Virus record (IMG/VR): IMGVR_UViG_3300031836_000398
DNA from: an uncultured virus (IMG/VR IMGVR_UViG_3300031836_000398)
Lineage: Duplodnaviria > Heunggongvirae > Uroviricota > Caudoviricetes > Herelleviridae
Reading direction: 5' to 3' (one strand)
Length of the DNA stretch: 64,000 nt
Shown piece after piece: positions 2,181 to 58,538 of the stretch (within the stretch, counting starts at the first letter, position 1; every line of letters begins with the position of its first letter). The notes beneath the pieces are model-generated. The model searched no databases. It was given only the letters and a program-made list of their open reading frames with translations, and was not told where the DNA came from. The position numbers and the translations under genes were made by a program.

Positions 2181-3101
2181 TTAGAGCAACTCAAGGACGT
2201 CGGCGGCGTCCATGAGCAGGCGAGCCTGCTTGCTGCGGATGAGGCCGTTGGAGCCCTGCGACGCTGCGCTGGTGATCGGCCCTGGGAGAGCTCCGATCGG
2301 GGTGCCGATCTTGTCTGCCCAGTACGCGGTGTTCAGCGAGCCAGAGCGAGCGCCGGCTTCAGGGATAACAAGCGCCTCACCCAGTGCGGCAATGATGCGG
2401 TTGCGCTGAAGGAAACGGTGCTTGGTCGGTGGCATCCCTGGTGCCATTTCGCTCAGGACGAGTCCGGCTGTCCCGATGAGCTGAAGGAGCGAAGCATTCC
2501 CCGCGGGGTAGAGGCGGTCGAGACCACCAGCAACGACTGCGATCGTGCTGCCGTTGCTCGCCAGGGCTGCGCGATGCACCATGCCGTCGATGCCGTAGGC
2601 GGCACCTGAGATGAGGGTGACACCCTTGTCGCACAGGTTCTGTGCCAGCTCCATGGTGATGTTCTCGCCGTACGCGGTTGCGGCGCGGGCGCCGACGATG
2701 GAAACGCGTGGGCGCGGGGAAGTGATGAGTCCGGTATTTCCCAGAGCAAACAGGACGCGGGGCGCTTCGAGCTGCAGACGGTCGAGGCCGGCGGGCCAGT
2801 CTGGTTCGCCAGGAAGAATGACGGTCATTCGACTGGAAATCATGAGCTGATCGCCGTGGTTCATCACGGTGATCGAGAGACGTTGTTTCCACATCGTCAC
2901 GGTGTCTTGGTCGTTGATGTCGCTACCGCGAGGTAGCGCGACACTGTCGCTCTGAAGGTCAGCAAGGAACGCTGTGTAGGCGTCGATACGGTCTCCGGGG
3001 TAGCTCTGAAGAACTTGCAGCAGAAGCTTGTCGCCAGGCTCAGCAATCTGAGCGATAGCGACGGCGATCATGTTGCGGGTAAGTGAGATTGTTGTGGACA
3101 T
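2181..3101 (-). CDS. dprA: DNA-processing protein DprA/Smf
   Basis: IVGARAATAYG, SGAAYGIDG, RFLQRNRIIAAL and EAGARSGSLNTA motifs; start moved to the ATG after an AAAGGA RBS. Confidence 0.92.
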   Translation of the reverse strand: MSTTISLTRNMIAVAIAQIAEPGDKLLLQVLQSYPGDRIDAYTAFLADLQSDSVALPRGSDINDQDTVTMWKQRLSITVMNHGDQLMISSRMTVILPGEPDWPAGLDRLQLEAPRVLFALGNTGLITSPRPRVSIVGARAATAYGENITMELAQNLCDKGVTLISGAAYGIDGMVHRAALASNGSTIAVVAGGLDRLYPAGNASLLQLIGTAGLVLSEMAPGMPPTKHRFLQRNRIIAALGEALVIPEAGARSGSLNTAYWADKIGTPIGALPGPITSAASQGSNGLIRSKQARLLMDAADVLELL

Positions 3102-3227
3102 GAGAATTTTCCTTTGTTCAGGGTGGGTTGATAAATAGGCTTTGCGGCCGTTGAGGCGCGCGGACGCAGAAACAGCCACCGACACTTTCGTGAGGGTGGC
3201 TGTTCCTGTTATTGCGGGTGTTACTGG

Positions 3228-5897
3228 TTACTCAGATATGAGCTCTGATTCCTCCGACGCAAGTCTCTTGCGTGAACGAATCATGAACGAGATGCCGAGA
3301 GCCAACAGGACGGCTACTGCGATGCCAGCCGTGAAGGGTGCAGCGCTACCGGTTCTCGCCAGCATCTCAGGCACTGAAGCGAGAACTGTCGGCTCCGTGA
3401 CCGGTTCTGCCGGTTCCATCGGTTCTGCCGGTTCGACGTATGGTGCGCTGAGCCGTTGCATCATCAAATCAGTCCGGACGGTGCCGCCGTCAGGCGTCAT
3501 TGCGCTTGCGTGCATTCGGAGTTCAACAGAGCCTCCAACAACGTCTTCATCCGTAACTGTGTAGGTTGCAGTGCAACTGACGCTGTCGCCCGGGTTGAGA
3601 GTCGCAACGTCGGTGCATTCCGGTGTGCTCAGCACGCCTGTGCCGTTGGTGGTGATCGGAGCGAATGCCGCAGAGCTCAACGTGGTGTTTCCATCGTTGG
3701 CGAAGTCAAAAGCCAGATCGACTACTTCGCCGGAGACGAGTTCCTCTGTGGAGGCGGTTGCGTTTTCACTGAGCGACTTGGCCGGGTTCAACGAGAGGAC
3801 AGTGTTGACCGTGGTGACCATTTCCGTCTGGTCGGTCAGAATCGGATCAGTTGTTGATCGACTTGCTCTCGAGCTTGGGTCTACCGTTTGTGACGTCACG
3901 TTGAGGCCATCCCAAATCAAGACATACGAGCGATCGAGATCGCCCTTGGTGAGAACGTAGTCATAACCGCAGATGGCTGTCTCGCCAGCCGCAAGCGTGG
4001 TTACGTCGCAGCTTGGTGCGGTACGCGGGTTGTCGCCCGTGAAAACGAAGTAACTCGAATAGATAGTTCCCAACGGAACTATGTCGACCAGGGGCAATAC
4101 CCCCGCATTGCGCAAGGAGTAAACCAAGCGAAGCGTGTCGCCGGCCTGAGCGCCTTCTAGCCCCTCGAAATAGGGCTGTCCGAGTTGTATGGTCGGCCCT
4201 CGTCTAAGGGCGGCAGCGGTGAGCTGCTGGATCGCGTCGTTCGCGACACTCGCGCCGGTATGGCTAGTGGCCGTAGCCCCGGGAGCGGACATGACGTTTC
4301 CGTAGAGAACATCGTCAAGATCGCCAGTGGCGGTAGCCGAGCACTTCACTGTTTCGTTCGGTACGAGAATTCCGTCCCAATCAGTGGGGCACGAAATGGC
4401 GCTGGCGCCACCTCCGCCGCTGACCATATCGGCAGCCTGGCTGAACTCGAAGTTGCTGAGTTTGGTATCACCGGTGTTTTGAAGCTCGTAGACGAATGTC
4501 TGTTCTTCTCCAACGCGGTTGTCCACGCGGTATGCCTCAATCGTGGTCCGTGGCCGGGGCAAGAACTCCATAGACGAAGCTGCTCTGGGGGCCACTCTTG
4601 CGTTTAACGGCTGGTAGGCCGTGATCACCGCGCCATTGACCGTGCCGTGAACGTTTGATGAGAATGACATCGAACCTCGGTCAACGTCAGCTTGAACGAT
4701 CGTGTACGTCGAGCTGCAAACCCCGCGAGAATCAGGTTCCATACTTGTAGGGCAGTCAGTGATGACGGGGGTAACGCCGTTGGCGCTTCCGTCGGTAAGT
4801 CCGTTGACAGAAACAATGTCGACGCCTACGTCAGTCATTCGCAGATGGCTCAGAAACTGGAATGTCCAGTACAGTTCGATCTGCTCACCAACAACGAGAG
4901 TGTCGTTCGCGACAATGCCTGACGGCTCGAAAAACAACTCTGACACCTGGTTGCTCCATTCGTCTGAGGTTGAACACTCCCTACCGGGGGAGGTGATTTC
5001 TCCAGGCATACACGCGGTAATGTCGGCGCTCCCGTCACCTGTCGCTTTCATTGTGAATTTGATCGTCATCACTACTTCTTTGTTTACAGCAAGGGGTCCT
5101 GACCAAGTGAGGAAGTTCCCATCGCGGACGACCTCGTCAAAGTTTTCAACATAACTAAAGTCACCCTTCTTCGTTAGATCGAAGGCTACTTCGGCGCTGT
5201 CGAAGACACCGTCGTCCAGCATCTCCGTCAAGTCAACCGTGACCGACATCGGGTACTCTTCTGTGAAATCCGACTTGCCGTGGTTGGCCATCTCCACATA
5301 GAGTTCGCCTTGTTGGTCGATGTTGATTCCAGAGACAACAGGCGCCGCGAGGGCGAGGATGCTTCCTTCGACCCCACCTCGAAAGACAAAGAGTGCGCAG
5401 TCAGCGTCGAGCCGAACTCCAACAAGCTCGCTGAAGTTCTCGCCACAGTTCTTGTACACAACCAGGGGTTCCCAATTCTCAAGATGTGACTTGGTAGTTA
5501 CGTCCACCGAGAATGTACATTCTTCGTCGGATGCACCAGACAGCGAGATGCTGTTACCGCCGCTATCGGCAGATATGGTCGATGTCGCACAAGAGGCTTC
5601 AGCGTTAGCCGGGCTTGCGACAATCAGCCCTTCGGCGAGGGTGTTGGTCAATGACCATGTGTTACCAGCGATTCCGGTTCCATCCACGGTGTAGGTGGTT
5701 CGGATGTGACCCGTTGCAAGGTCTTGATCGTCGGTGGTTACAGAAACCTGAGGATCGGAGAATGGGACTGACGTCGGCAGGGGTGCGGCGGTTACCGCAC
5801 CGGCAGGAACTGCAATAAGCAGAGCTCCCACCACAGCGAACGAGAGTCCGCGCATACGCCTACCCGAAGGGGACGTGTCGCGAATTGATGATGTCAA
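3228..5897 (-). CDS. sortase-anchored surface protein with repeated Ig-like (DUF11/DUF7507-like) domains, copy 1
   Basis: Signal peptide; repeated NxGxxxL...C..L.PGE...C..TY modules; C-terminal LARTG + TM + basic tail; TTG start after AAAGGA. Confidence 0.85.
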   Translation of the reverse strand: MTSSIRDTSPSGRRMRGLSFAVVGALLIAVPAGAVTAAPLPTSVPFSDPQVSVTTDDQDLATGHIRTTYTVDGTGIAGNTWSLTNTLAEGLIVASPANAEASCATSTISADSGGNSISLSGASDEECTFSVDVTTKSHLENWEPLVVYKNCGENFSELVGVRLDADCALFVFRGGVEGSILALAAPVVSGINIDQQGELYVEMANHGKSDFTEEYPMSVTVDLTEMLDDGVFDSAEVAFDLTKKGDFSYVENFDEVVRDGNFLTWSGPLAVNKEVVMTIKFTMKATGDGSADITACMPGEITSPGRECSTSDEWSNQVSELFFEPSGIVANDTLVVGEQIELYWTFQFLSHLRMTDVGVDIVSVNGLTDGSANGVTPVITDCPTSMEPDSRGVCSSTYTIVQADVDRGSMSFSSNVHGTVNGAVITAYQPLNARVAPRAASSMEFLPRPRTTIEAYRVDNRVGEEQTFVYELQNTGDTKLSNFEFSQAADMVSGGGGASAISCPTDWDGILVPNETVKCSATATGDLDDVLYGNVMSAPGATATSHTGASVANDAIQQLTAAALRRGPTIQLGQPYFEGLEGAQAGDTLRLVYSLRNAGVLPLVDIVPLGTIYSSYFVFTGDNPRTAPSCDVTTLAAGETAICGYDYVLTKGDLDRSYVLIWDGLNVTSQTVDPSSRASRSTTDPILTDQTEMVTTVNTVLSLNPAKSLSENATASTEELVSGEVVDLAFDFANDGNTTLSSAAFAPITTNGTGVLSTPECTDVATLNPGDSVSCTATYTVTDEDVVGGSVELRMHASAMTPDGGTVRTDLMMQRLSAPYVEPAEPMEPAEPVTEPTVLASVPEMLARTGSAAPFTAGIAVAVLLALGISFMIRSRKRLASEESELISE

Positions 5898-6110
5898 GGT
5901 TGCTTCCTTTGTTCGTTTATCAGGATATTTGCCACTGCAAAGCAGGTGGACCGGTGTGTCTATAGTAGAACAGACCACGGGTAAAAGACATGTTTTATGC
6001 TCGTATTCAAGCGTTTTGCTGCTTTATGGGTCGCTTTATCGTGCGGACACAGAAACAGCCACCAACACTTTCGTGAGGGTGGCTGTTTCTGTTCTTGCGG
6101 GCGTTGCGGG

Positions 6111-8804
6111 CTACTCAGAAATGAGCGCTGATTCCTCCGACGCAAGTGCCTTGCGTGAACGAATCAGGAACGAAATGCCGATAGCCAACAAGACCGCGAT
6201 TGCGAGGCCCGCCGTGAAGGGGGCTGCGCTACCGGTTCTCGCCAGCATCGCAGGCACGTCAGCGGCGTCCGCGTTAGCGGAATCGCCTTCAGCGGCGTTT
6301 CCTTCAGTGGGATCTCCGTCAGTGGAGTCGCCTTCAGTGGGGTCTCCGTCGGTGGGGGCCTCGGGTTCCGTGACCGGTTCCTCTGGCTCAACGTACGGCG
6401 GGCTGAGTCGTAGCATCGTCAAACCGCTCAGAACGGTGTCGCCCTCAACCGTCACTGCGGTTGCGTGCGTTTGGAACTCAACAGAGTCTTCGACAATATC
6501 TTCATCGGTGACTGTGTATGTCGCAGTGCAGTTGGTGCTATCGCCAGGAGCGAGAGTCGCAACGTCGGTGCATTCCGGTGTGCTCAGCACGCCGGTGCCG
6601 CTGGTGGTGACCGAAGCAAAAGACGGTTCGTTCAACGTGGTGTTTCCATCGTTGGTGAAGTCAAAAGTAAGATCGACTACCTCGCCGGAGACTAACTCTT
6701 CGACAGACGCTGTTGCGTTTCCGCTCAGGGACTTGACCGTGTTCAGCGAGAGGACAGCGTTAACTGAGTTGCCGAACATTGAGTACGAATCGCTCAGTAT
6801 TGGATCAGTCGTTGACCGGTCGTGTACCGAGTCAGCGGGTGACACCCATTGCCCCTCTGGTCTCATTTGCTCAAATATCAAGAAATACGAACCATCGAGG
6901 TCACCCTGGGTGAGAACATAGTCATAGCCGCAGACGGTTGTCTCACCAACCGCAAGTTCGCCTACGAGATCGCAGCTTTGCTCTCCACGCGGGTTTTCAC
7001 CCGAGAAAAGGAACCAATCAGGTTCTGAAGATCCCAACAGATTGACGCCGAGCAAGGGCACTCTCCCCACATTGCGAGCAGAGTAAGACAGGCGAATCGT
7101 GTCGCCGGCCTGAGCGCCTTCTAGGCCCTCGGCATAGGGCTGTCCGATAAGAGCCTGGCCACTCCTGTTAAGGCTGACGTAGGTGAGTGGGGACTCGGCG
7201 TTCAGCGAATCACCGGTATGACTGGTGGCAGTAGCGGCGGCAATCGTCGCGATGTTTCCGTAGTAAACGTCTTCAAGATCGCCAGTGCCGGTAGCCGAGC
7301 ACTTCACTGTTTCGTTCGGTACGAGAATTCCGTCCCAATCAGTGGGGCACGAAATGGCGCTGGCGCCACCTCCGCCGCTGACCATATCGGCAGCCTGGCT
7401 GAACTCGAAGTTGCTGAGTTTGGTATCACCGGTGTTTTGCAGCTCGTAGACGAATGTCTGTTCTTCTCCAGCTCGGATGTCATCGTCGTAGTGCCACGGT
7501 GCGCTGAAGAACGCCATCGACGACGCTGCGCCTGGGGCCACCGAAGTGTCCAGCGGATTGTTGCCTGTGATCAGCTGGTCTACGGCTGTGCCGTGAAGGT
7601 TTGATGAGAATGACATCGAACCACGGTCAACGTCAGCTTGAACGATCGTGTACGTCGAGCTGCAAACCCCGCGAGAATTGGGTTCCATACTTGTGGGGCA
7701 GTCAGTGATGACGGGGGTGACGCCGTTGGCGCTTCCGTCGCTGAGTCCGTTGACAGAAACAATGTCGACGCCGAGGTCAGTCATTCGTTTGCTGCTGCGA
7801 TTCTGGAACGCCCAGTACAACTCGATTTGCTCACCAACAACGAGAATGTCGTTATTGATAATTCCTGACGTGTCGAAGTGGATGGCTGGGTAACCCATTG
7901 CATAAATAGTGCGGTCGTCACACTCGTCGCCTGGGTAGGTTATTCCTTCAGGCATACAGGCGGAGAGGGTTAGACGTCCGTCACCAGTCGACTTCATCGT
8001 GAATTTGACTGTCATTGTTGCTGTACCCTCTGCTGCGATGGGCCCTGACCAAGTCAGGAAGTTTCCATCACGGGTGACGTCGCCAGCGGTCGACACATAG
8101 GCGCTGTCGAAAACACCGTCGTCCAGCAACTCCGTCAAGTCAACTGTGACCGACGCCGGGTAGTCCTCTGTGAAAGCCGAGCTTCCGCGGGCGCGTAGGG
8201 CTACTTCGTACTGCCCTTGTTGGTCGGTTCCAAGATTAGACGGGGTGCCTGACGCGCTCACGCGAACGCTTCCTTCGACCCCACCCGCAAAGGTAAGGAT
8301 TCCGCAGTCAGTGTCGAGCAGCACTCCAACAAGCTCGGGGAAGTTCTCGCCACAATTCTTGAATGCAACCAGGCGATCCCAGTCCTCAAGAGGTATCTCG
8401 AGAGCTATGTCTACCGAGAACGTACATTCTTCGTCGGATGCACCGGACAGCGAGATGCTGTTACTGCCGTTCTCGGCGACGATGGTCGATGAAGTGCAAG
8501 ATGCCTCGGCGTTCGCCGGGCTTGCAACAATCAGCCCTTCGGTGAGGATGTTGGTCAATGACCATGTCTCACCAGCGATCCCAGTTCCATCCACGGTGTA
8601 GGTGGCTCGGACGAAACCCGTCGCAGGGTCTTGGTCGTCGTAGGTTACTGAAGCCTGGGGATCGGTGAACGGGACTGACGTCGGCAGGGGTGCGGCGGTT
8701 ACCGCACCGGCAGGAACTGCAATAAGCAGAGCTCCCACCACAGCGAACGAGAGTCCGCGCATACGCCTACCCGAAGGGGACGTGTCGCGAATTGATGATG
8801 TCAA
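6111..8804 (-). CDS. sortase-anchored surface protein with Ig-like repeats, copy 2
   Basis: Paralog of 3228..5897 with an identical N-terminus and LARTG anchor; extra PTEGD-type repeats. Confidence 0.85.
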   Translation of the reverse strand: MTSSIRDTSPSGRRMRGLSFAVVGALLIAVPAGAVTAAPLPTSVPFTDPQASVTYDDQDPATGFVRATYTVDGTGIAGETWSLTNILTEGLIVASPANAEASCTSSTIVAENGSNSISLSGASDEECTFSVDIALEIPLEDWDRLVAFKNCGENFPELVGVLLDTDCGILTFAGGVEGSVRVSASGTPSNLGTDQQGQYEVALRARGSSAFTEDYPASVTVDLTELLDDGVFDSAYVSTAGDVTRDGNFLTWSGPIAAEGTATMTVKFTMKSTGDGRLTLSACMPEGITYPGDECDDRTIYAMGYPAIHFDTSGIINNDILVVGEQIELYWAFQNRSSKRMTDLGVDIVSVNGLSDGSANGVTPVITDCPTSMEPNSRGVCSSTYTIVQADVDRGSMSFSSNLHGTAVDQLITGNNPLDTSVAPGAASSMAFFSAPWHYDDDIRAGEEQTFVYELQNTGDTKLSNFEFSQAADMVSGGGGASAISCPTDWDGILVPNETVKCSATGTGDLEDVYYGNIATIAAATATSHTGDSLNAESPLTYVSLNRSGQALIGQPYAEGLEGAQAGDTIRLSYSARNVGRVPLLGVNLLGSSEPDWFLFSGENPRGEQSCDLVGELAVGETTVCGYDYVLTQGDLDGSYFLIFEQMRPEGQWVSPADSVHDRSTTDPILSDSYSMFGNSVNAVLSLNTVKSLSGNATASVEELVSGEVVDLTFDFTNDGNTTLNEPSFASVTTSGTGVLSTPECTDVATLAPGDSTNCTATYTVTDEDIVEDSVEFQTHATAVTVEGDTVLSGLTMLRLSPPYVEPEEPVTEPEAPTDGDPTEGDSTDGDPTEGNAAEGDSANADAADVPAMLARTGSAAPFTAGLAIAVLLAIGISFLIRSRKALASEESALISE

Positions 8805-11040: not shown

Positions 11041-11841
11041 TTAGCTCCCAGAGAGTTGTTCTTGTGTTTGCTGGGTCGCGTTAGACGCGTCCTGTTCCTC
11101 TTCCAGCTCGGTGATCTGGGCCGCAGCCTCTTTGTTTTGTGTGTGCTCGGCGACGTCGCGAAGTGCCGCCGGCAACTCTTGGCTGGCCTCGTAGAGGCTG
11201 CGGTAGGAGTCGCGTTCTTTACTGGTCAGAGCGAGGGCCCGAGTGAGAGCTTCGACGCGCTGATCGGTGGTGTGTCCGGCCAACGCTTGGATCTCAGCGG
11301 CCATCTCAATGCCATGAAGCTGGATGTAGCTTTCCCACTTCTTGAAGATTGACGAAGTGTTCGGGTTACGTCCCAGCGACAGCGACAGGGCTACCGCCTG
11401 GTCGATGTCACGCATCTTGCTTGGGTTGACTTCGCCCAATCGACGACCCAAACGGGAAACGTCCACAGTGTGGATTTGCTCGCACAGAGCGATTGTTTCC
11501 CTGGCACCAGGTTTGTCGTTGGGTCGCAGGTCAGGAATGAGAATGTGGGTTGGGCCCGAGCGCTTGCGTGCGGAGGTTGTCAGGTAGACAACTTGCACAA
11601 AGCCGGAGTGATTTCCGATGACGTTGTTGGAGAGGATGACCGCAGGGCGGTTGCTCCACATTTCAGTTCCAACAGGCGGCTGTTCGGGGTGGTCTTTGAC
11701 CATCCAGACATCTCCGCGCTCGTAGTGCTGAGCGAGAGACGACGCTGTGGTCGGTTTGTTGGTTGGTTTGTTGACAGCGTGCAGGATCGTTCGAGGTGTG
11801 GGCTTGGTATCAGTTGGAGCAGAGGTGAGTGTGGAAGACAT
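11041..11841 (-). CDS. PemK/MazF-family endoribonuclease domain with C-terminal coiled-coil extension
   Basis: RGDVWMV, GTE...RPAVILSNN, VVYLTT and ALCEQIHTVDVSRL motifs. Confidence 0.85.
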   Translation of the reverse strand: MSSTLTSAPTDTKPTPRTILHAVNKPTNKPTTASSLAQHYERGDVWMVKDHPEQPPVGTEMWSNRPAVILSNNVIGNHSGFVQVVYLTTSARKRSGPTHILIPDLRPNDKPGARETIALCEQIHTVDVSRLGRRLGEVNPSKMRDIDQAVALSLSLGRNPNTSSIFKKWESYIQLHGIEMAAEIQALAGHTTDQRVEALTRALALTSKERDSYRSLYEASQELPAALRDVAEHTQNKEAAAQITELEEEQDASNATQQTQEQLSGS

Positions 11842-23884: not shown

Positions 23885-24013
23885 GGGCTGTTGCTTTCCT
23901 GGGTAGCGAATGGCGATGGGTGGGTGTGACTGTGAAACGGGAAAGAAAAGACCCGGAGCGCAAGGCGAGTTGTTGCTCGTTACGCTCCGGGTCTTTGTTG
24001 TTGCTGTGGCTAC

Positions 24014-36540: not shown

Positions 36541-38340
36541 TTACGTGACAGGCTCTGCCGTTGGTTCTGCAGTTGGCGCGTCGGATTCATCGTCAGGATT
36601 GCTTCCGACGACCGTGGTTGGAGCGATTCGCTGCAAGCCTCGGTAGTGCGGATCCAAGGGGAACGGCACCGCTCTCTGGGAGACGGTGTTGCCGGTGTAT
36701 GCCTTGTTCATCCAGCCCTTGAGGTCGTAAGTGATGATCAATGGCTCAGGTGTCGATAGCCTGCTGCCGGGGCGAATCTGGCGGCGCGTGTCATCGCAGA
36801 ACCAGATGTTGGACTTCTTGGCAATAACGGCGACTTCCTTGATGAAACCGTTGCGACCAATAGGTGATCCCGACGGGGAGTTCAACGTGAACCAGGCTCG
36901 GTACAGGTCGTACAGAAACTGGAACGGAAGCAAGTCCCAGACGAAGTGATCCTCGAACTCGCCGAAGAACGCCCGAATCGGGTCGTTGGTCAGCTTGTAT
37001 TCCTCGAGCACATCTTTGGTGGCTTCGGGCTCTGAGAGCTCGTAGTAGTTCATGTGGAGAACACGTTGGAGCACGTATTCGAGAACATCCTGGCGACCGA
37101 GATATTCCTCCTTGATGTACTTGCGCTCAGCGCCGGTGAAGGACTTCGAGAAGGGCACGAACAGCTGTCGCCGATAGAAACTCTCGGACTTGTCCTTAGC
37201 GCGGGGATACCCGTTCAGGCACTGAACCATGAAGCCCCAGAACTGGAACGCGATCGGCGGCTTGTTCTTGCGGTTCATGGAAATGACGTCATTGGTGATG
37301 ATGGCTTTGAGGTTTGCCGCCTTGTCAATAAACGTTCCGACGTCGTTCTCATCGACGATGATTGCCGAGGCCCGAATCAGGGGCTCAAGCAAGAAATCCT
37401 TGCCAAAGTCGGGGATCTGAATGGACGCAAACGAGGACGGCCCGGTGAGTTCTCGCATGAGCTCGCACAGGGTTCCTTTACCGTTGTTTCCGGTCTCGGA
37501 GTAGAACCACGCCGCCTTTCCCCATCGCACATGGGGTCGGATGATCGCGCCGAGGATTTCCCAGAGCAATTCACCGATCTCAGGGTCGTCGGTCAGTTCG
37601 AGCATCCACGTTTCGACGTCCCACTCGGTCTTGTCGATCGGGTGGGTGATGGTGACGTTTTGTGCTTGCGAGTTGTATGCAACTTGGGACTTCGAGGTGA
37701 ACACTGTTGCCGGAGTGAAATCGCGTAGCGTCTTGGTGTGGTAATCAAAAATACCGTTCTGGACGGCAATCAAGTCGCGGTCAGTGTTGCAGTGGGCGCG
37801 AGGAGCACCGTCGGCCATGGCGGCTTGTATTTCCTTGAAGTCATTGGTTGACAGGTCGTAGTTGTAGCTACGAGCGACGGATCGAAAACTGTCCTCGCTG
37901 GTCTGATAGATACCTTTGTCAGACCCCTGGTCGCTGTAGATTCCTAGCAGGTCGTAGTCCCGGTTGGTGTTCTTTCCCGAGGGTGCAATGCGCACGACGT
38001 GGTGAAGGCGAAGCAGGATCTGGGCGACTTGGCTGCAGCTGAGTTTCTTCAGGAGGAAGATCTTGTTGTTCGTGGCTCGGCCGATGTTCTCGGCATCGAA
38101 CTCGAAGTTGACCTGGTTGATCAGGTCGGTCTCGATCGCTTCAGCCGATGGTAGGTCTGCGAGGTCAAGGTCAGCGAGATATTTCTCGGTAACCGACCGG
38201 ATGATTTTGTTCTGAGGAACAGTCAGCCCACCGGTGCCGGCGCTACTGCGAGACTTCTTCGCGGGCGTCTTTGTATCTTGTCCAGTGGTGTCAGCCGCGT
38301 CGCCGTCAGGAGTGCTAATTGAGTTTTGCGTAATAGCCAT
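36541..38340 (-). CDS. D5/P4-family SF3 helicase without its own primase domain
   Basis: D5_N-like IAVQNGIFD...FTP..FTSK; Walker A GNNGKGT; IIVDEN; RKNK; FYRR. Confidence 0.88.
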   Translation of the reverse strand: MAITQNSISTPDGDAADTTGQDTKTPAKKSRSSAGTGGLTVPQNKIIRSVTEKYLADLDLADLPSAEAIETDLINQVNFEFDAENIGRATNNKIFLLKKLSCSQVAQILLRLHHVVRIAPSGKNTNRDYDLLGIYSDQGSDKGIYQTSEDSFRSVARSYNYDLSTNDFKEIQAAMADGAPRAHCNTDRDLIAVQNGIFDYHTKTLRDFTPATVFTSKSQVAYNSQAQNVTITHPIDKTEWDVETWMLELTDDPEIGELLWEILGAIIRPHVRWGKAAWFYSETGNNGKGTLCELMRELTGPSSFASIQIPDFGKDFLLEPLIRASAIIVDENDVGTFIDKAANLKAIITNDVISMNRKNKPPIAFQFWGFMVQCLNGYPRAKDKSESFYRRQLFVPFSKSFTGAERKYIKEEYLGRQDVLEYVLQRVLHMNYYELSEPEATKDVLEEYKLTNDPIRAFFGEFEDHFVWDLLPFQFLYDLYRAWFTLNSPSGSPIGRNGFIKEVAVIAKKSNIWFCDDTRRQIRPGSRLSTPEPLIITYDLKGWMNKAYTGNTVSQRAVPFPLDPHYRGLQRIAPTTVVGSNPDDESDAPTAEPTAEPVT

Positions 38341-38855
38341 GGGTTGACCTTTCGTGTGGGAGGACTGCGTTAGTGCCGAAAAGAGTTACGTTGAAGAATC
38401 AACGAATATGCTCGTTTAACAGGCAAATAACATGAGTAAGCATATGTTCAAGTTGCTATAGGTGCAACCCATTTGAGACAGGGCAACGCAAATTTGATCG
38501 TGCTCGACTGCGAGATTGCCTTGTTTATGAGGATTTTCAGATCAAGATCACCACAACTGGGGTGACGCTTTGTCTATACCTGCACAGCAGGGATAGACGT
38601 ATCTGGGTGCGTGATCTGCAATCACGCCCCCGAGCGCGCATCGCGCGCTGTGGGCACCAGGGCACACGAAGTGTGCCCAGTGGTGACCACCGTTGAGGTC
38701 GGTAGCTGACGCTCAACCAGTGGGTTTTTTGATGAAAGCCACTGAGCAGCTGCTCAGTCGAGGGAGATTGTGATGGGCAACCCATCACGCCGCTGAGTAC
38801 AGCCGCAGCTCAACCAGGAATTCACTTGGGTTGCTCGTGCAGGGAGAGTTGCACT

Positions 38856-39302
38856 TGTACCCTTTGTACCCTTTTTCATTTTCAAGAAAGGGTACAGCCC
38901 TGAAAGGCTCTACTTCCCTGCGATTGCAGGGATCTAAAGGGGTGTGTACCCTTTTTTCTAAATTAAATTTAAAAAAAAAGGGTACACACCAAACACGCCT
39001 CTCATCAGGCATTTCCGATGCTGTGCAGTGATTTGTACCCTTTGTACCCGCTAATTACAGGTTCATGTACATGTGCGCATGCGCATGCGCACACACGCAC
39101 AGAGACCGTTCAAAAAAACGGGTACAACGGGTACAGGGGTACCAAATGGGGTCGCTCGGCCAGCGTTCACGCGGGTTTTGGCTGTACCCAATCGCTAGAT
39201 CGGAATGGGTACACGTCGCGCCGAGCTCTGCTGCTCGTTGAAGAAAATGCAGGTCAGCGATGGTTTATGAGGGTGTACCCACTTTTAGCCAAAACGGGTA
39301 CA
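38856..39302. repeat. iteron array and candidate replication origin
   Basis: 13 perfect TGTACCC/GGGTACA copies in inverted pairs, with an AT-rich palindrome at 38941-38990. Confidence 0.75.
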
Positions 39303-39513
39303 CCCGGCTTCGGGCTCCCGAATTCGCTGATTAGCACGCCAATTCCACCGCTGTGCAGGGAATTGCGGCGTTGGAACGCCGTCTGCGGCTACTGCTGTGT
39401 GGCGTTCTGCGGCCTTTTCCCGTCGCGGAGACACATCGACCGAACGCGACGAGAAAGAAACGCCCAGAGGCCGTGGTGGCCTCTGGGCGTAGTGCGGTGC
39501 ATTGACCGCGTAG

Positions 39514-39681
39514 TTAGTAGTTGTAGCTGGGCGCAATCATGACGAGCGCGAGCAGCATTCCGGCCGTGATGACCGTCATGATGAGCAAGCTGACCAGGAT
39601 GATTGCGATAACGCTTCCGCGGCGGATGGCCATTACAAGCCATACGATCAGGAAGCCGCCGATGAACGGGACGAGTGCCAT
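39514..39681 (-). CDS. small two-TM membrane protein
   Basis: 55 aa, hydrophobic; AGG RBS. Confidence 0.55.
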   Translation of the reverse strand: MALVPFIGGFLIVWLVMAIRRGSVIAIILVSLLIMTVITAGMLLALVMIAPSYNY

Positions 39682-39847
39682 TGGGTGCCTACTTTCTGTA
39701 TTTGGCTGTGCAGGATGCACGGGCGTAGCGAATAAGTGTGTGGTGTTATTGGTGCGAAACAGTGGTTTCAGCTGATATTTCAGCAAATGTTGCTGTTTGG
39801 TGTTGCGCAGTAAATCCCGAATGGGGTATTGTATGTTCTACGCGTTA

Positions 39848-40199
39848 GTGATGCGGAGTGAGGGTTCTAAAACCTCGTAAGGCCGGAGAGTTCCTGTGGG
39901 AGGGAGCTTCTCCGGTCTTTTTGCGTCTCCCTGGCAGATTTGAATATGAGCTGTCGCAGCTTCGCTGCCGATGCAGTCAAGAAGTCCACGACAGCCCATT
40001 GCGGTAACCGCAGTCTCACTCAGTGAGGCTCGGGAGTCTTTGGCAGTTTCTGGTGACGCCTCGGGTTTCACCCAAGTCATCCCATCAGAACTGTTCATCC
40101 CCACCCCCGGTGACCTGCACCAGGTCACCAAGCCAGAGTGCCCATAACCGCTGTGCTGCTCGCGTAAGCGATTCAGCACTAGCAAACTCTGTAAAACAC
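39848..40199 (+). other. large multibranched folding element (ncRNA or ssDNA structure)
   Basis: Closing stem TGCGGAGT/ACTCTGTA and many internal hairpins with + strand G.T pairs. Confidence 0.55.
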
Positions 40200-40213
40200 C
40201 TTCTCGGACGAAG

Positions 40214-40960
40214 TCACGAGAAGTCCGTCTTTTTGCCGTAGAGCTGCGCCAGCAGCAGCCCGAATAGGGCTAGGCCCGCAATGACGAACGGTAGTGATGT
40301 CAGCGACGTAATTACGCTCGCCGGCATGGTCACCGAGAGTGCATTGAAAAGAGCGTGGGCCACGATCACACTCACAAGATTCTTGGTGCGCTCATAGATG
40401 GCCGCCAAGAGCAACCCCAGGGGAAGCGTGAGCACAATCTGCACGAGATTCATGTGCAGAAGCGCGAATATCAGCGCACTGAACAGTGCAGCCCAAATGG
40501 GCGCAACGTGGTTGCGCAGCTCGGCGTAGAGCAAGCCACGCATGAGCATCTCTTCGCCCACAGGTGCAAACATCAACACGAGCAGTAGCGTCAACGACGC
40601 CGGTGTCTCGGTGATTGCCTGGACCTGTGTATCAAAGCTGGGCGAACCGACGTAGCTGTAGAGCAGCGCGGCGGTCGTTTGAGCCACAAACCAGGTCGCG
40701 GGAACTGCCGCGAAAATCAGCAACCAGATCGTCGGGTTCGTTGTGGATGACGATCGCACTGGTGGACCTTGAGAAGTGACCCTCGAGCGGATCCAGATCA
40801 GACCCGCAACGAAAACTGTTGCGTTAGCCCAGAGGGCCCCCATCACCGCGGAATTGGTGATGGAGGCCACGATGAGGGTTGTTGCTAGGTAGAGCGCGAG
40901 CGCCCCACCCATGACCATGGCCGTAGCTAGTACTCGATGGTGAGATGTGGTTGTGGCCAT
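40214..40960 (-). CDS. CPBP (CAAX/Abi) intramembrane metalloprotease
   Basis: APVGEEMLMRG, FALLH and HALFN motifs; multiple TMs. Confidence 0.9.
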   Translation of the reverse strand: MATTTSHHRVLATAMVMGGALALYLATTLIVASITNSAVMGALWANATVFVAGLIWIRSRVTSQGPPVRSSSTTNPTIWLLIFAAVPATWFVAQTTAALLYSYVGSPSFDTQVQAITETPASLTLLLVLMFAPVGEEMLMRGLLYAELRNHVAPIWAALFSALIFALLHMNLVQIVLTLPLGLLLAAIYERTKNLVSVIVAHALFNALSVTMPASVITSLTSLPFVIAGLALFGLLLAQLYGKKTDFS

Positions 40961-40999: not shown

Positions 41000-42841
41000 C
41001 TAAAGGGCGCGCACGACTGTTGCTTGGACTGAGCGGTGATCGCGGAAAACGTTGATCGAGAACTGGACGCGAAGGCGCAGCTCTCTTTCGCTGTGCATCA
41101 ACGACGCGGCGCGTTCCTTGAGTTCCATGAACTGATCGGCCGAGTTCCACCAGAGACACTTGAGTCCGCTTCGCGTGACGAGTCGGATGTGAGTCTTCTC
41201 ACTTCCCAGCAGACTGATGTGGCACTGGCTCAGATCAAGTACGAGCTCAAACTCAGGTCGCAGGAATCCCTGACCGAATGGCATGAGCCGTTCGATCTGC
41301 TCGGTCATCGTCAGAATGGCCTCGATGTCGCTTAGCGGCACATCGGAATCATCCGTTGGGCCGAATCGAAGATCGGGCGCGGTGATCTCAGCCATCTGAC
41401 CACTGGTTTCGAGGTCATCCAGCATCTGCTGAGAGGTTTCGCTCATCACTTTGTGGAAGCGAATGATCTCGTCGCCATTCTTGACGCGAATGCCACAGGC
41501 GTTCTCGTGACCGACGGCGGTAAAGCCGGCGGGTGTCATGGTTTCAATCACGCTGAACCAGAACGGAGAACGTGCTGAACCGGAGGTAGGTTCGTCGTCA
41601 GCATCGGGCGTGTGGAACACGACCGTGGGAACACCTGATCGCTGCATCAGGTGGTTGGCGATGAGTCCCAACATGCCTGCGGGGGCACCCGAAAGATACA
41701 CGTACGGTGCCAAGGGCTGATCGGTCTTTTCGAGTTCCTCGAGGTAGACCTTCAGCAGCTCCTTGCGCAACTCGTTGCCAGCAAGCACTCGCACCATGCG
41801 TTCGGTTTGTTCATCGGACGTAGGCGCCGTGAACACACCGAAACAATCAGCCATCGAGCCGTTGATTCGACGAGCGGCGTTGAACGCAGGGGCCAAGTAG
41901 AAGCCGTAGAAACCCTCGTTGATGTCGAGGATGCTGCGCAGTTTGCCTGCCCGGGTGTACTCGGCAAGAGCAACGCTCATTCCGCGGAACGCAGAGACGA
42001 ACACCGGGTGGTGTCCGCCATTGTTCAGCAGCGTCATCAGCGTGGTGCTGGTGACATCAATCTCGTCGTCAGGGTCTGCTGGGGGTGTGACGTAGAGCAG
42101 TCGAGCCAGTGAGAGGGAATCTCGCACGAGCTGGCGATTCTCGAACACCAGGGGCATGACGTCGGAGACGGTGCCGATACCCGCAAAGAGCTTCAGCATG
42201 TGGATGCTGTTGATCTGACGGGACTGGTAGCGCATCGTCCATGCTTCGATGACCTGGTAGAGCACATGGGCTCCGCAGATCCCAGTGTTGCGATACGTTT
42301 CGTCGATACGTGACGGGTCAACGGCAACGTCAGCGTTAGAGCCAGGCTCAAGCTCGACGTGGTGGTCGGTGACCAGGGTGATCATGCCCAGCTGGCGTGC
42401 TTGTTCGATGCCCTCGTGCGAGTTGACGCCACCATCGCAGGTGATGATTGCTTTGACATCGGGGTATTGCTGCTTGATCTCGATGATGTCTTCGACGGTG
42501 ACGTCGTGACCACGGTTGTAGTCAGGGACGTGCATGGCGACGTTGAAGCCGAGTTCGCTGAAGCCGGCATAGCCGAGCACACCGGACGTGATGCCATCCA
42601 TGTCGAAGTCGGGAACGATGACGATCAAGTCCTGGGACTCGTGAATGGTTTTGAGCTTTTCGAGCATCTCGTCCAGGCTCAAAAGCGTGTCGTGATCAAC
42701 GCTGTCGATGTGGGTGAGGAAGTCATCGCTCCAACCTCGGCGCTCACGAAGGAGCCCGAAGAGGTCAAGGGATTCTTCCCCGAAGGTGACTGGCAGAATG
42801 CCAGCCGGTGAAGCATGGGGAAGCTGTTGTAGCTTGCTCAT
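41000..42841 (-). CDS. RecJ-like DHH-family exonuclease/phosphoesterase
   Basis: PDFDMDG, TCDGG, TDHH, GTVSDVMPL, GSARS and GHENACG motifs. Confidence 0.88.
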   Translation of the reverse strand: MSKLQQLPHASPAGILPVTFGEESLDLFGLLRERRGWSDDFLTHIDSVDHDTLLSLDEMLEKLKTIHESQDLIVIVPDFDMDGITSGVLGYAGFSELGFNVAMHVPDYNRGHDVTVEDIIEIKQQYPDVKAIITCDGGVNSHEGIEQARQLGMITLVTDHHVELEPGSNADVAVDPSRIDETYRNTGICGAHVLYQVIEAWTMRYQSRQINSIHMLKLFAGIGTVSDVMPLVFENRQLVRDSLSLARLLYVTPPADPDDEIDVTSTTLMTLLNNGGHHPVFVSAFRGMSVALAEYTRAGKLRSILDINEGFYGFYLAPAFNAARRINGSMADCFGVFTAPTSDEQTERMVRVLAGNELRKELLKVYLEELEKTDQPLAPYVYLSGAPAGMLGLIANHLMQRSGVPTVVFHTPDADDEPTSGSARSPFWFSVIETMTPAGFTAVGHENACGIRVKNGDEIIRFHKVMSETSQQMLDDLETSGQMAEITAPDLRFGPTDDSDVPLSDIEAILTMTEQIERLMPFGQGFLRPEFELVLDLSQCHISLLGSEKTHIRLVTRSGLKCLWWNSADQFMELKERAASLMHSERELRLRVQFSINVFRDHRSVQATVVRAL

Positions 42842-54973: not shown

Positions 54974-55271
54974 TGCGTGATCGCGCTGCCCAGGGGTGGG
55001 CAGTAGCGGCACACGGTGATCAGTCATGCGTGCGATTACGCAGTCGTGCTGGTGACGTGTCACGAGCAGGAGCAGGAGCAGTTGTGGGGCCAGGAGTGCA
55101 ACTCCTGGTTCGGCTGCTCAGCCACACGTAGCACTGATATTGGTGATGGTGGAAGACACCACCAAGATCAGCACTACCGCTTTGGGCCTAAGTTCTGTTT
55201 AGCGTCGCCCAAACGACGGTGAGTTCCCTTGTGATCACGCTCAATCCCGAATCGCCTTTGGCGATTGCTTG

Positions 55272-58219: not shown

Positions 58220-58465
58220 GCTTTACCCCCTTCAGGGCGATGATGAATGAGTAAGTGGTCAACAGCGACCGGATGTTCGTTGTTCACGGCTACACCCGGG
58301 CCGCCGCTGGCGGCCAAGCGTGTGAGCGTGAAAAAGAAGCCCCAGAGGATTGATTCCTCTGGGGCATTCACGGTGAGACTCATCTCGGATCGGAGACATC
58401 TCTCCCGGCCGCGAAGCGGCGTGACCGGACATTACCGCCGTGCGCGATAAATCTGTGGTGATTTG

Positions 58466-58538
58466 CTCCCCGACCTGGACTCGAACCAGGAACCTACGCA
58501 TTAACAGTGCGTTGCTCTGCCAATTGAGCTATCGAGGA
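58466..58538 (-). tRNA. tRNA-Asn(GTT), CCA not encoded
   Basis: TCCTCGATAGCTCAATTGGCAGAGCAACGCACTGTTAATGCGTAGGTTCCTGGTTCGAGTCCAGGTCGGGGAG forms a full cloverleaf. Confidence 0.95.

Follow-up and report, generated by a model that had tools for sequence, protein, structure and literature searches.

The window analysed here, a 64,000-nt stretch of an uncultured virus record (IMG/VR IMGVR_UViG_3300031836_000398), is the replication module of a large actinobacterial element that resembles a plasmid or an integrative and conjugative element (ICE), and next to its origin it carries what we predict to be a conserved small RNA gene. Our favoured explanation, to which we give a probability of about 0.6, is that the product of this gene is a trans-encoded antisense RNA that represses translation of the element's primase and in this way controls replication or copy number. 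The predicted gene takes up the first ~80 nt of a region (39848-40199, + strand) that a sequence-only reading had singled out as the best candidate for a novel large non-coding RNA (ncRNA), folded into one closed structure of about 350 nt. As we argue below, that region is a composite and not one large RNA. Feature coordinates are collected in Table 1.

The predicted small RNA and its conservation

A candidate promoter, TTGCGC-N18-TATTGT on the + strand, had been noted just upstream of the flagged region, and this promoter is conserved: 46 of 47 sequences have TTGnnn-N17/18-TAnnnT at the aligned position, locus L051 being the exception with TTA instead of TTG, and across relatives the spacer has diverged in sequence and kept its length of 17-18 nt. 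A stricter sigma-70 scan did not call the promoter at 39803-39832. The transcript expected from it would begin with a single-stranded 5' tail, continue through a small hairpin lying between this tail and a long hairpin, and end at the latter; a GC-rich stem-loop with a U-tract at 39881-39922 has the composition of an intrinsic terminator, and a terminator scan calls a site at 39898-39912. On its own, the predicted RNA folds with -38.3 kcal/mol (z -4.5).

We compared the window with 80 genome and 80 metagenome loci around primase homologues, each oriented with the primase on the + strand; the + strand of the small RNA is thus the - strand of these loci. Common to the relatives and the window is a unit, encoded opposite the primase strand, that consists of the promoter, a 5' part of variable length, a near-invariant motif, (U/A)GGAACGUGAAAAC, a hairpin of 15-17 bp whose near-invariant apical part reads UCCC-CGUGGGAA-GGGA, and a T-rich tail. 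Between genera with primases of ~50% identity, conservation exceeds 90% both in the ~17-nt loop and in the upstream GGAACGUG. A covariance model of the unit (R1), built from 44 sequences, scores the window's small RNA at 54.9 bits (E 2.4e-11) and recovers the unit, in the same orientation to the primase, from 46 of the 162 related primase loci; outside the seed, it matches L042 with 107 bits, L049 with 102 bits and L050 with 56 bits. Carriers are loci of Pseudarthrobacter, Arthrobacter, Streptomyces, Kribbella, Promicromonospora, Nocardiopsis and Actinomadura. The unit is single-copy in three of three host genomes, and was found in none of 150 other sampled genomes of the class. With filters off, R1 reached at best 18.3 bits, far from the primase, in seven loci that include the next-closest ones (L001-L003, L083-L085), and it had no match in Gordonia pGKT2 or in the plasmid of Streptomyces NBC_01454. 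Reverse-strand matches of ~20-38 bits are the same hairpins read backwards. There is also a weak second match in the window itself (23914-24013, +; 22 bits, E 0.013), which may be just another terminator-like hairpin.

The hairpin covaries. RNAalifold finds 19 pairs, eight of them with changes on both sides. In an alignment of 42 sequences (38 distinct) fitted to the model, which biases the pair counts towards structure, 97.8% of cells pair versus 93.8% after shuffling, and the covariation score is 0.219 versus 0.136, with none of 500 shuffles as high; when the 3' partners are shifted by one to three columns as a control, 46-60% of cells pair. G.U and U.G pairs occur in tens of cells (at one pair, GU in 16 of 44 sequences) and A.C in three cells in total. 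Because G.U is frequent and A.C rare, the RNA should be on the promoter-bearing + strand. A coding reading of the hairpin was rejected because relatives differ by 1-nt indels within it. Variation within the element is consistent with this picture in a single comparison: over 39848-40034 a natural variant in run X9 differs from the window by no substitution and one 1-nt deletion, versus 2.4-5% in the flanks. Runs X7 and X8 are identical to the window, and X10 holds mostly short unrelated pieces.

The unit is also syntenic with origin and primase. In 43 of 160 loci, the order along the primase strand is RecJ, CPBP protease, a palindrome (GGTGACCGG-N6-CCGGTCACC), a small open reading frame (ORF), the hairpin, ~1 kb of non-coding DNA with TGTACCAC/GTGGTACA repeats, and the primase, so that these repeats separate the small RNA gene from that of the primase, at the place of the iterons in the window. 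The window has the same order minus the small ORF, for which the best tblastn match across the 64 kb has an E of 1.5. Where present, this ORF encodes 105-136 amino acids (aa; for example L011 4403-4813 and L081 111-428, both on the loci's + strand) and sits between the CPBP protease and the small RNA; it matches no Pfam family above threshold, and the L081 and L011 types are only ~24% identical.

Complementarity to the primase leader

The 13-mer that makes up the upper stem and loop of the long hairpin recurs in the primase leader with one mismatch, its only other match in the 64 kb at up to two mismatches. Both copies have + strand orientation, which makes the small RNA the complement of the primase mRNA at 12 of 13 positions of this site (site B), and a perfect 9-mer joins 39895-39903 with 38355-38363. 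Site B overlaps the first three bases (GAA) of the Shine-Dalgarno sequence GAAAGG (38348-38353). A second perfect 9-mer joins the 5' tail with the leader at -35..-27 (site A), and both sites fall within a predicted 22-nt loop closed by UUUCG/CGAAA. Two matches of at least 9 nt were seen in one of 5000 dinucleotide shuffles of the leader and in none of 1026 other 123-nt slices of the window; the corresponding figures for a single 9-mer are 116 of 5000 and 25 of 1026.

Bipartite complementarity to the leader is present in every lineage, also where the sequences have turned over. In relatives, the loop GUGGGAAG is complementary to CUUCCCAC, 44-51 nt 5' of the ATG and within the loop of a hairpin (CGGC...GCCG) predicted in the leader, and (U/A)GGAACGUG is complementary to C(A/G)CGUUCC(A/U) some 30 nt further upstream. 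L056 combines AUGGGAAG with CUUCCCAU and, where site A would be, has a new 12-mer; L036 has GGAACGCG with CGCGUUCC; L081 has GUGGGAG with CUCCCAC, and in addition two adjacent 7-mers at -26..-13 beside the Shine-Dalgarno sequence; and the window has GGGAGG with CCUCCC along with a wholly different site A. The pair flanking the motif is U-A in Streptomyces loci and A-U in Arthrobacter loci, and where leader site A varies, at four positions, every change is one that allows G.U. When RNAs and leaders were swapped, the window RNA gave 18 with its own leader and 0-9 with 13 others, the L056 RNA gave 20 with its own and 0-8 with others, and members of the main clade proved mutually compatible. RNA and leader motif occur together in 44 loci and are both absent in 113, the three exceptions being L081 and L082, which have variant motifs, and L035, where the contig ends. 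A coding role for the primase leader was rejected because L049 and L016 have 1-nt indels in it, and simple duplication between small RNA gene and leader was likewise set aside, the shared stretches being in scrambled order. A conserved TAGGGT-like box suggests that the leader may be ~90 nt long.

How might such an RNA work? Transcribed from its own promoter away from the iteron origin and ending at its own hairpin and U-tract, it would act in trans on the mRNA of the primase-helicase, whose gene starts 1.5 kb off across the origin. The loop and upper stem would pair with one leader site and the single-stranded 5' tail with its neighbour, together spanning -35..-11. In the window, where the sites reach into the 5' half of the Shine-Dalgarno sequence, this pairing would block ribosome binding, and occlusion of the ribosome-binding site would apply to L081 as well; in the main clade, with sites further upstream, the leader might instead be remodelled or destabilised. 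If the RNA were made constitutively, its amount would follow gene dosage and hence exert negative feedback on initiation at the adjacent origin, the outcome being copy-number control, incompatibility, or, in integrated copies, replication immunity.

A number of points weigh against this explanation. Among the public runs that contain DNA of the window, which are brine, seawater and sediment metagenomes, none is listed as an RNA run; the transcript is a predicted one, and the transcription of sites A and B as part of the primase mRNA is likewise presumed. The complementary stretches are short (7-13 nt) and their order does not give one continuous antiparallel duplex; the main-clade sites, at -51..-44 and -82..-73, are off the Shine-Dalgarno sequence, which leaves direct occlusion to the window and L081. 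RNAduplex energies are unremarkable throughout, for the whole RNA (z -0.29, 108 of 300 shuffles as good), where they do not discriminate, as for the 5' part (z -1.4, 28 of 300) and the loop region (z -2.3, 7 of 300), and L081 has no exactly complementary stretch of at least 8 nt with its own leader. The model-fitted alignment, as mentioned, leans towards structure. The loci share descent, so their counts are not counts of independent events; part of the hairpin's conservation is explained by its second role as a terminator for the convergent small ORF of relatives; and a matched change of both copies is equally expected of direct DNA repeats bound by a protein.

This last point leads to the alternative that survives best, albeit as an unlikely one: that the shared motifs act as DNA (CTTCCCAC and CACGTTCC in relatives, CCTCCCACA and CACTAACGC in the window), as direct repeats that flank the iteron origin and are bound by the initiator or a regulator, with no antisense RNA involved. 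There is precedent in the phage-plasmid P4, whose ori and crr share repeats bound by the P4 primase. Both motif sets do share one DNA strand and bracket the iterons, their order is not colinear as for a simple RNA duplex, and the concerted change of both copies in L056 and in the window would also arise through co-evolution with a binding protein. If the motifs were simply binding sites, however, it is hard to see why one copy should always sit in the apical loop of a covarying hairpin with its own conserved promoter and U-tract, and the other in the loop of a predicted leader hairpin, or why the copies should differ only by transitions that give G.U in RNA. In addition, the order and spacing of the motifs are unlike between the two places, and the motifs are distinct from the iterons.

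Ranked next, and also improbable, is the possibility that the hairpin does no more than act as an intrinsic terminator, in both directions, between convergent units, the promoter hexamers driving either no transcript or a short, functionless one. The hairpin of relatives does lie directly 3' of the small-ORF stop codon, flanked on either strand by T-runs (L011 is an example), stems of terminators covary too, and the terminator scan calls its site here. Terminator loops are not normally invariant, though, whereas this loop, like the upstream motif, is near-invariant; nor would a terminator explain why the promoter has been kept in nearly all sequences, why the unit persists in the window despite loss of the small ORF, or why the leader should be complementary and vary in concert. 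Were the antisense explanation wrong, we would be left with a conserved bidirectional terminator beside an origin.

More doubtful still is a real small RNA whose main target is another gene, above all the mRNA of the convergent small ORF, in the manner of the 3' overlap of type I toxin-antitoxin pairs. RNA and ORF do converge on a shared hairpin in 43 loci, and weak U-tracts, as in the Streptomyces copies, might allow read-through into sequence antisense to the ORF. Against this, the RNA is under strong conservation in the window, which has no such ORF, the ORF of L081 and L082 has a terminator of its own ahead of the shared hairpin, its product of 105-136 aa is not a small hydrophobic peptide, and the leader complementarity would again go unexplained.

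The flagged region and the surrounding replication module

Each complementary segment from which the sequence-only reading had assembled its closed structure, CTTTGGC/GCCAGAG included, was found where it had been placed or nearby. With RNAfold, 39840-40240 (+) reaches a minimum free energy (MFE) of -165.5 kcal/mol versus -129.9 +/- 5.8 in 100 dinucleotide shuffles (z -6.12, 0 of 100 as good), in a fold that includes the 8-bp closing stem and most of the listed hairpins; the TGCGTC/GATGCA pairing, proposed to form a three-way junction, is absent from this fold even though both segments are present. The - strand of the same interval gives -168.6 kcal/mol (z -5.42). As both strands fold equally well, stability alone decides neither the strand nor whether a single molecule is formed. 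The one large closed RNA did not stand up to comparison: what is widely conserved among relatives is only the promoter and the first hairpin, a unit of ~80 nt in the window and ~90-120 nt in relatives, and a gene for a ~105-136-aa protein occupies the place of the proposed structure's middle in 43 of 160 loci, lying between the 5' part and the palindrome in the closest relatives, L081 and L082 (both of which stop at a contig edge in the closing-stem area). We therefore regard as very improbable a single + strand RNA of ~350-400 nt (39840 to ~40236) that adopts one closed multi-helix fold as a large ncRNA or primer RNA: the stable fold with its two G.U pairs in the closing stem, a + strand T-run after the last hairpin (~40230), the invariance of X9 beyond the first terminator and compensatory changes between the 39923-40050 hairpins and L081/L082 would suit it, but the 17-bp GC-rich hairpin and U5 should end the transcript at ~39921, relatives have a protein gene within the supposed structure, the - strand folds as well and is favoured by the long internal stem (A.C on +, G.U on -), and conservation across the family is limited to the first ~80 nt.

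The impression that the region does not resemble ribonuclease P (RNase P), transfer-messenger RNA (tmRNA) or signal recognition particle (SRP) RNA was borne out by a covariance search, in which 39600-40400 had no match at gathering level to any Rfam family, these three included, nor to 6S/Ms1, 6C, ctRNA_pGA1 and other countertranscript RNAs (ctRNAs), C4 antisense RNA or OLE/GOLLD/ROOL/HEARO. At E<=10 the only match in 39600-40400 was PVT1_2, a vertebrate long non-coding RNA model (16.9 bits versus a threshold of 47, E 2.9), which is noise; ARAGORN found no tmRNA, and the loci of four relatives had no Rfam match at E<=1. Thus the proposal of a novel ncRNA in replication control keeps its core, in that no Rfam family matches and the primase-leader complementarity fits, and loses its large size of ~350 nt. 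A single-stranded DNA origin, offered as the alternative, found nothing in its favour, the replicon having a double-stranded iteron origin and a primase-helicase; the location 'beside the origin' proved right, with TGTACCC/GGGTACA iterons and an AT-rich tract in the neighbouring sequence.

Table 1. Positions of the predicted small RNA, its predicted targets, and other features in the window
Feature	Position	Strand	Remarks
Small RNA promoter	39803..39832	+	-35 TTGCGC 39803-39808, 18-nt spacer, -10 TATTGT 39827-39832
Predicted small RNA, ~80 nt	about 39840-39922	+	start and end predicted
5' tail of small RNA	39842-39850	+	contains target-complementary GCGUUAGUG
Long hairpin	39879-39919	+	GC core 39881-39917, apical GUGGGA 39896-39901
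Upper stem and loop (site B')	39891-39903	+	UUCCUGUGGGAGG, complementary to primase leader; DNA TTCCTGTGGGAGG
U-tract (TTTTT)	39918-39922	+	directly 3' of GC-rich stem
Site B, predicted target	complement of 38351-38363	-	CCUCCCACACGAA; -23..-11 from AUG at 38340
Site A, predicted target	complement of 38367-38375	-	CACUAACGC; -35..-27 from AUG
D5/P4-family primase-helicase gene	36541-38340	-	presumed regulated gene; Pfam DUF5906, D5_N, Pox_D5; PHROG DNA primase, E 2.4e-72
Iteron-type origin	38853-39305		at least 15 TGTACCC/GGGTACA copies, both orientations, paired as inverted repeats; repeat search
AT-rich tract within iteron origin	~38955-38980
Closing stem	39852-39859 / 40186-40193		TGCGGAGT with ACTCTGTA, 8 pairs, 2 G.U
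GGCCGGAGA/TCTCCGGTC pairing	inside hairpin 39881-39917
TGCGTC with GATGCA	39922-39927 / 39970-39975
Hairpin-rich spacer	39923..40050		long stem 39946-39956/39989-39999, then the next two hairpins
TGCGG-TAA-CCGCA	40000-40012
GTCTCAC-TCA-GTGAGGC	40013-40029
Conserved palindrome	40100..40135		CCCCACCCCC-GGTGACCTG-CAC-CAGGTCACC, arms 40109-40129
Two hairpins	40150..40236		GTGCTG...CAGCAC 40153-40179; CTTCTCG...CGAGAAG ~40200-40225 with T-runs on both strands; at the 3' end of the CPBP/Rce1-like gene
CPBP/Rce1-like protease gene	40214-40960	-
RecJ	41000-42841	-
Polymerase-like protein, 1134 aa	32743-36147	-

What, then, is the rest of the flagged region? The hairpin-rich spacer at 39923-40050 aligns with the 3' untranslated region (UTR) of the 105-aa ORF of L081 and L082, and its long stem shows compensatory changes between the window and these loci (GAGCTGTCG/CGACAGC versus GGGCCGC/GCGGCCC). 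In L081, T6 comes after the long stem on the primase (-) strand, which is terminator-like; in the window this run has decayed, and a mismatched A.C in the + strand stem reads as G.U on the - strand. Taken together, the 3'-UTR alignment, the L081 terminator and the - strand G.U indicate that the middle and 3' parts are remnants of neighbouring - strand units and not domains of a + strand RNA. On this sequence evidence, 39923-40213 comprises leftover terminator-like hairpins of the lost small ORF, the palindrome and the terminator region of the CPBP protease, the hairpins at 40150-40236 being those we infer to form the latter. The palindrome and the 39923-40050 spacer are only ~65 nt apart in the window. 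An exact-pattern scan of viral contigs for the core of 39923-40050 gave no match. A 115-aa ORF at 39838-40185 (-) was rejected as a gene: it matches nothing in Pfam or PHROG and is unlike the small ORF of relatives, it would cross the terminator hairpin, and the homologous stretch of L081 falls after a stop codon.

The palindrome deserves comment in its own right. In many loci GGTGACC(G/T)G-N3-7-C(C/A)GGTCACC with flanking CCCCC (a C5/G5 run) separates the CPBP-protease gene from the small ORF, almost invariant across genera (for example L011 4318-4350); the arms vary only by one symmetric change and the spacer between 3 and 7 nt. In relatives it is upstream of the small ORF, and it has been kept in the window without that ORF. 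It may be an operator, or a hairpin in RNA or single-stranded DNA.

Beyond the genes in Table 1, the window encodes an ATP-dependent ligase, several helicases, MgsA, a ClpB-like ATPase, DprA, a sigma factor and a MazF-like protein; the window ORFs searched include none for a phage structural protein. Of 3210 homologues of the primase, the most similar ones (~70% identity) carry the name Arthrobacter and come from contigs of 155-260 kb, the contig of the window being listed at ~156 kb; relatives on contigs of 150-260 kb are named from Arthrobacter, Microbacterium, Leifsonia and Plantibacter. The primases of L081 and L082 are 66% and 63% identical to that of the window. Gordonia pGKT2 and the Streptomyces NBC_01454 plasmid are annotated plasmids that carry the module. 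In the viral contigs searched, neither the CPBP protease nor the primase had a close relative, and blastn of 39700-40300 against phage records gave no match. The same primase family is also present in Firmicutes and gut metagenome loci (L005-L009, L012, L023, L086-L160), with RecJ and CPBP nearby on the opposite strand, on ~200-kb contigs (Lachnospiraceae, Blautia, Ruminococcus); R1 has no match in these loci.

Several further features of the element were recorded along the way. Just 3' of a small membrane-protein ORF (39514-39682/39786, -), a perfect 13-bp hairpin followed by TTCTTTCT at 39460-39490 (-) looks like a terminator that divides this gene from the origin. Rfam reports a Pistol ribozyme over the full model length at 55154-55218 (-; 43.6 bits versus a gathering threshold of 34.5, E 1.2e-4), and ARAGORN and Rfam report a tRNA-Asn (GUU) at 58465-58538 (-). 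A 266-aa ORF at 11041-11841 (-) has a PemK/MazF-like toxin domain (E 7.7e-23). Two paralogous, surface-protein-like proteins of ~900 aa with DUF7507 repeats and DUF7933 (3228-5978 and 6111-8804, -) adjoin the DprA homologue (2181-3185).

Comparison with known antisense regulators

Going one step further than repression of the primase, we see even odds that the unit represents an undescribed family of trans-encoded antisense small RNAs that determines copy number and incompatibility (or replication immunity) in widespread large actinobacterial plasmids and integrated elements whose replication depends on a D5/P4-type primase-helicase and an iteron origin, by way of a bipartite code of kissing loop and 5' tail that has been rewired between lineages. 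A search of the literature, limited to search listings and not in itself proof of unpublished status, found no specific description of an equivalent small RNA. If the proposal is correct, it supplies a replication-control circuit for a large and barely studied group of actinobacterial plasmids and integrated elements, one in which antisense control of an initiator works without overlap of regulator and target, through a short bipartite code that acts across the origin and evolves by paired changes. Such a code might account for compatibility groups, and the private pairings of the window and of L056 would, if real, make them separate specificity groups. The unit would also be a compact candidate part for setting vector copy number in actinomycetes.

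The obvious point of reference are the countertranscript RNAs of plasmids. CopA of R1 and the ctRNA of pGA1-type corynebacterial plasmids are RNAs of this kind that control copy number. Like the predicted small RNA, countertranscript RNAs such as pMV158 RNAII are small and strongly folded, with their own promoter, a single-stranded 5' tail, a terminator hairpin and a U-tract, and in both cases complementarity to the leader of an initiator mRNA leads one to expect inhibition of translation. RNAII is described as a 5' tail, one hairpin and a U-rich end, the tail being critical for binding and for inhibition of repB translation (PMC4485353). The predicted features of our RNA agree as to a small structured RNA with promoter and terminator of its own, and in the window as to loop and tail complementarity near the ribosome-binding site (9 + 9 nt, -35..-11); the sites of relatives are off the Shine-Dalgarno sequence. 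In contrast to countertranscript RNAs, which are encoded in cis opposite their target and fully complementary to it, the predicted RNA is encoded 1-1.5 kb away across the origin and has only two short stretches (8-13 nt) in common with the leader: the gene at 39840-39921 does not overlap the leader at ~38341-38432, and the origin lies between them. The protein regulated would be a D5/P4-type primase-helicase and not the Rep of countertranscript plasmids, and the ctRNA families of Rfam give no match at E<=10.

A second point of reference comes from the CI RNA of P4, to which the c4 RNA of P1 and P7 is related. Here, too, a small RNA shuts off its element's own replication genes, a P4-family primase among them, through two short sites. 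CI RNA is reported to silence the P4 replication genes by pairing with two separate short sequences of the target transcript (PMC4825925), and computationally a two-site pairing is what we find in the window and in relatives. The routes differ: CI RNA is processed from the very transcript it controls and causes premature transcription termination, whereas the predicted small RNA would come from its own divergent promoter on the opposite strand, rather than from the target operon transcript, and in the window would act at the ribosome-binding site. The two RNAs have no sequence or Rfam similarity.

Finally, the unit has in common with bidirectional intrinsic terminators a GC-rich hairpin and a T-run, with T-runs on both strands between convergent genes in relatives. 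Beyond such a terminator, it has an invariant loop and upstream motif, a conserved promoter, and complementarity to the leader of a distant mRNA.

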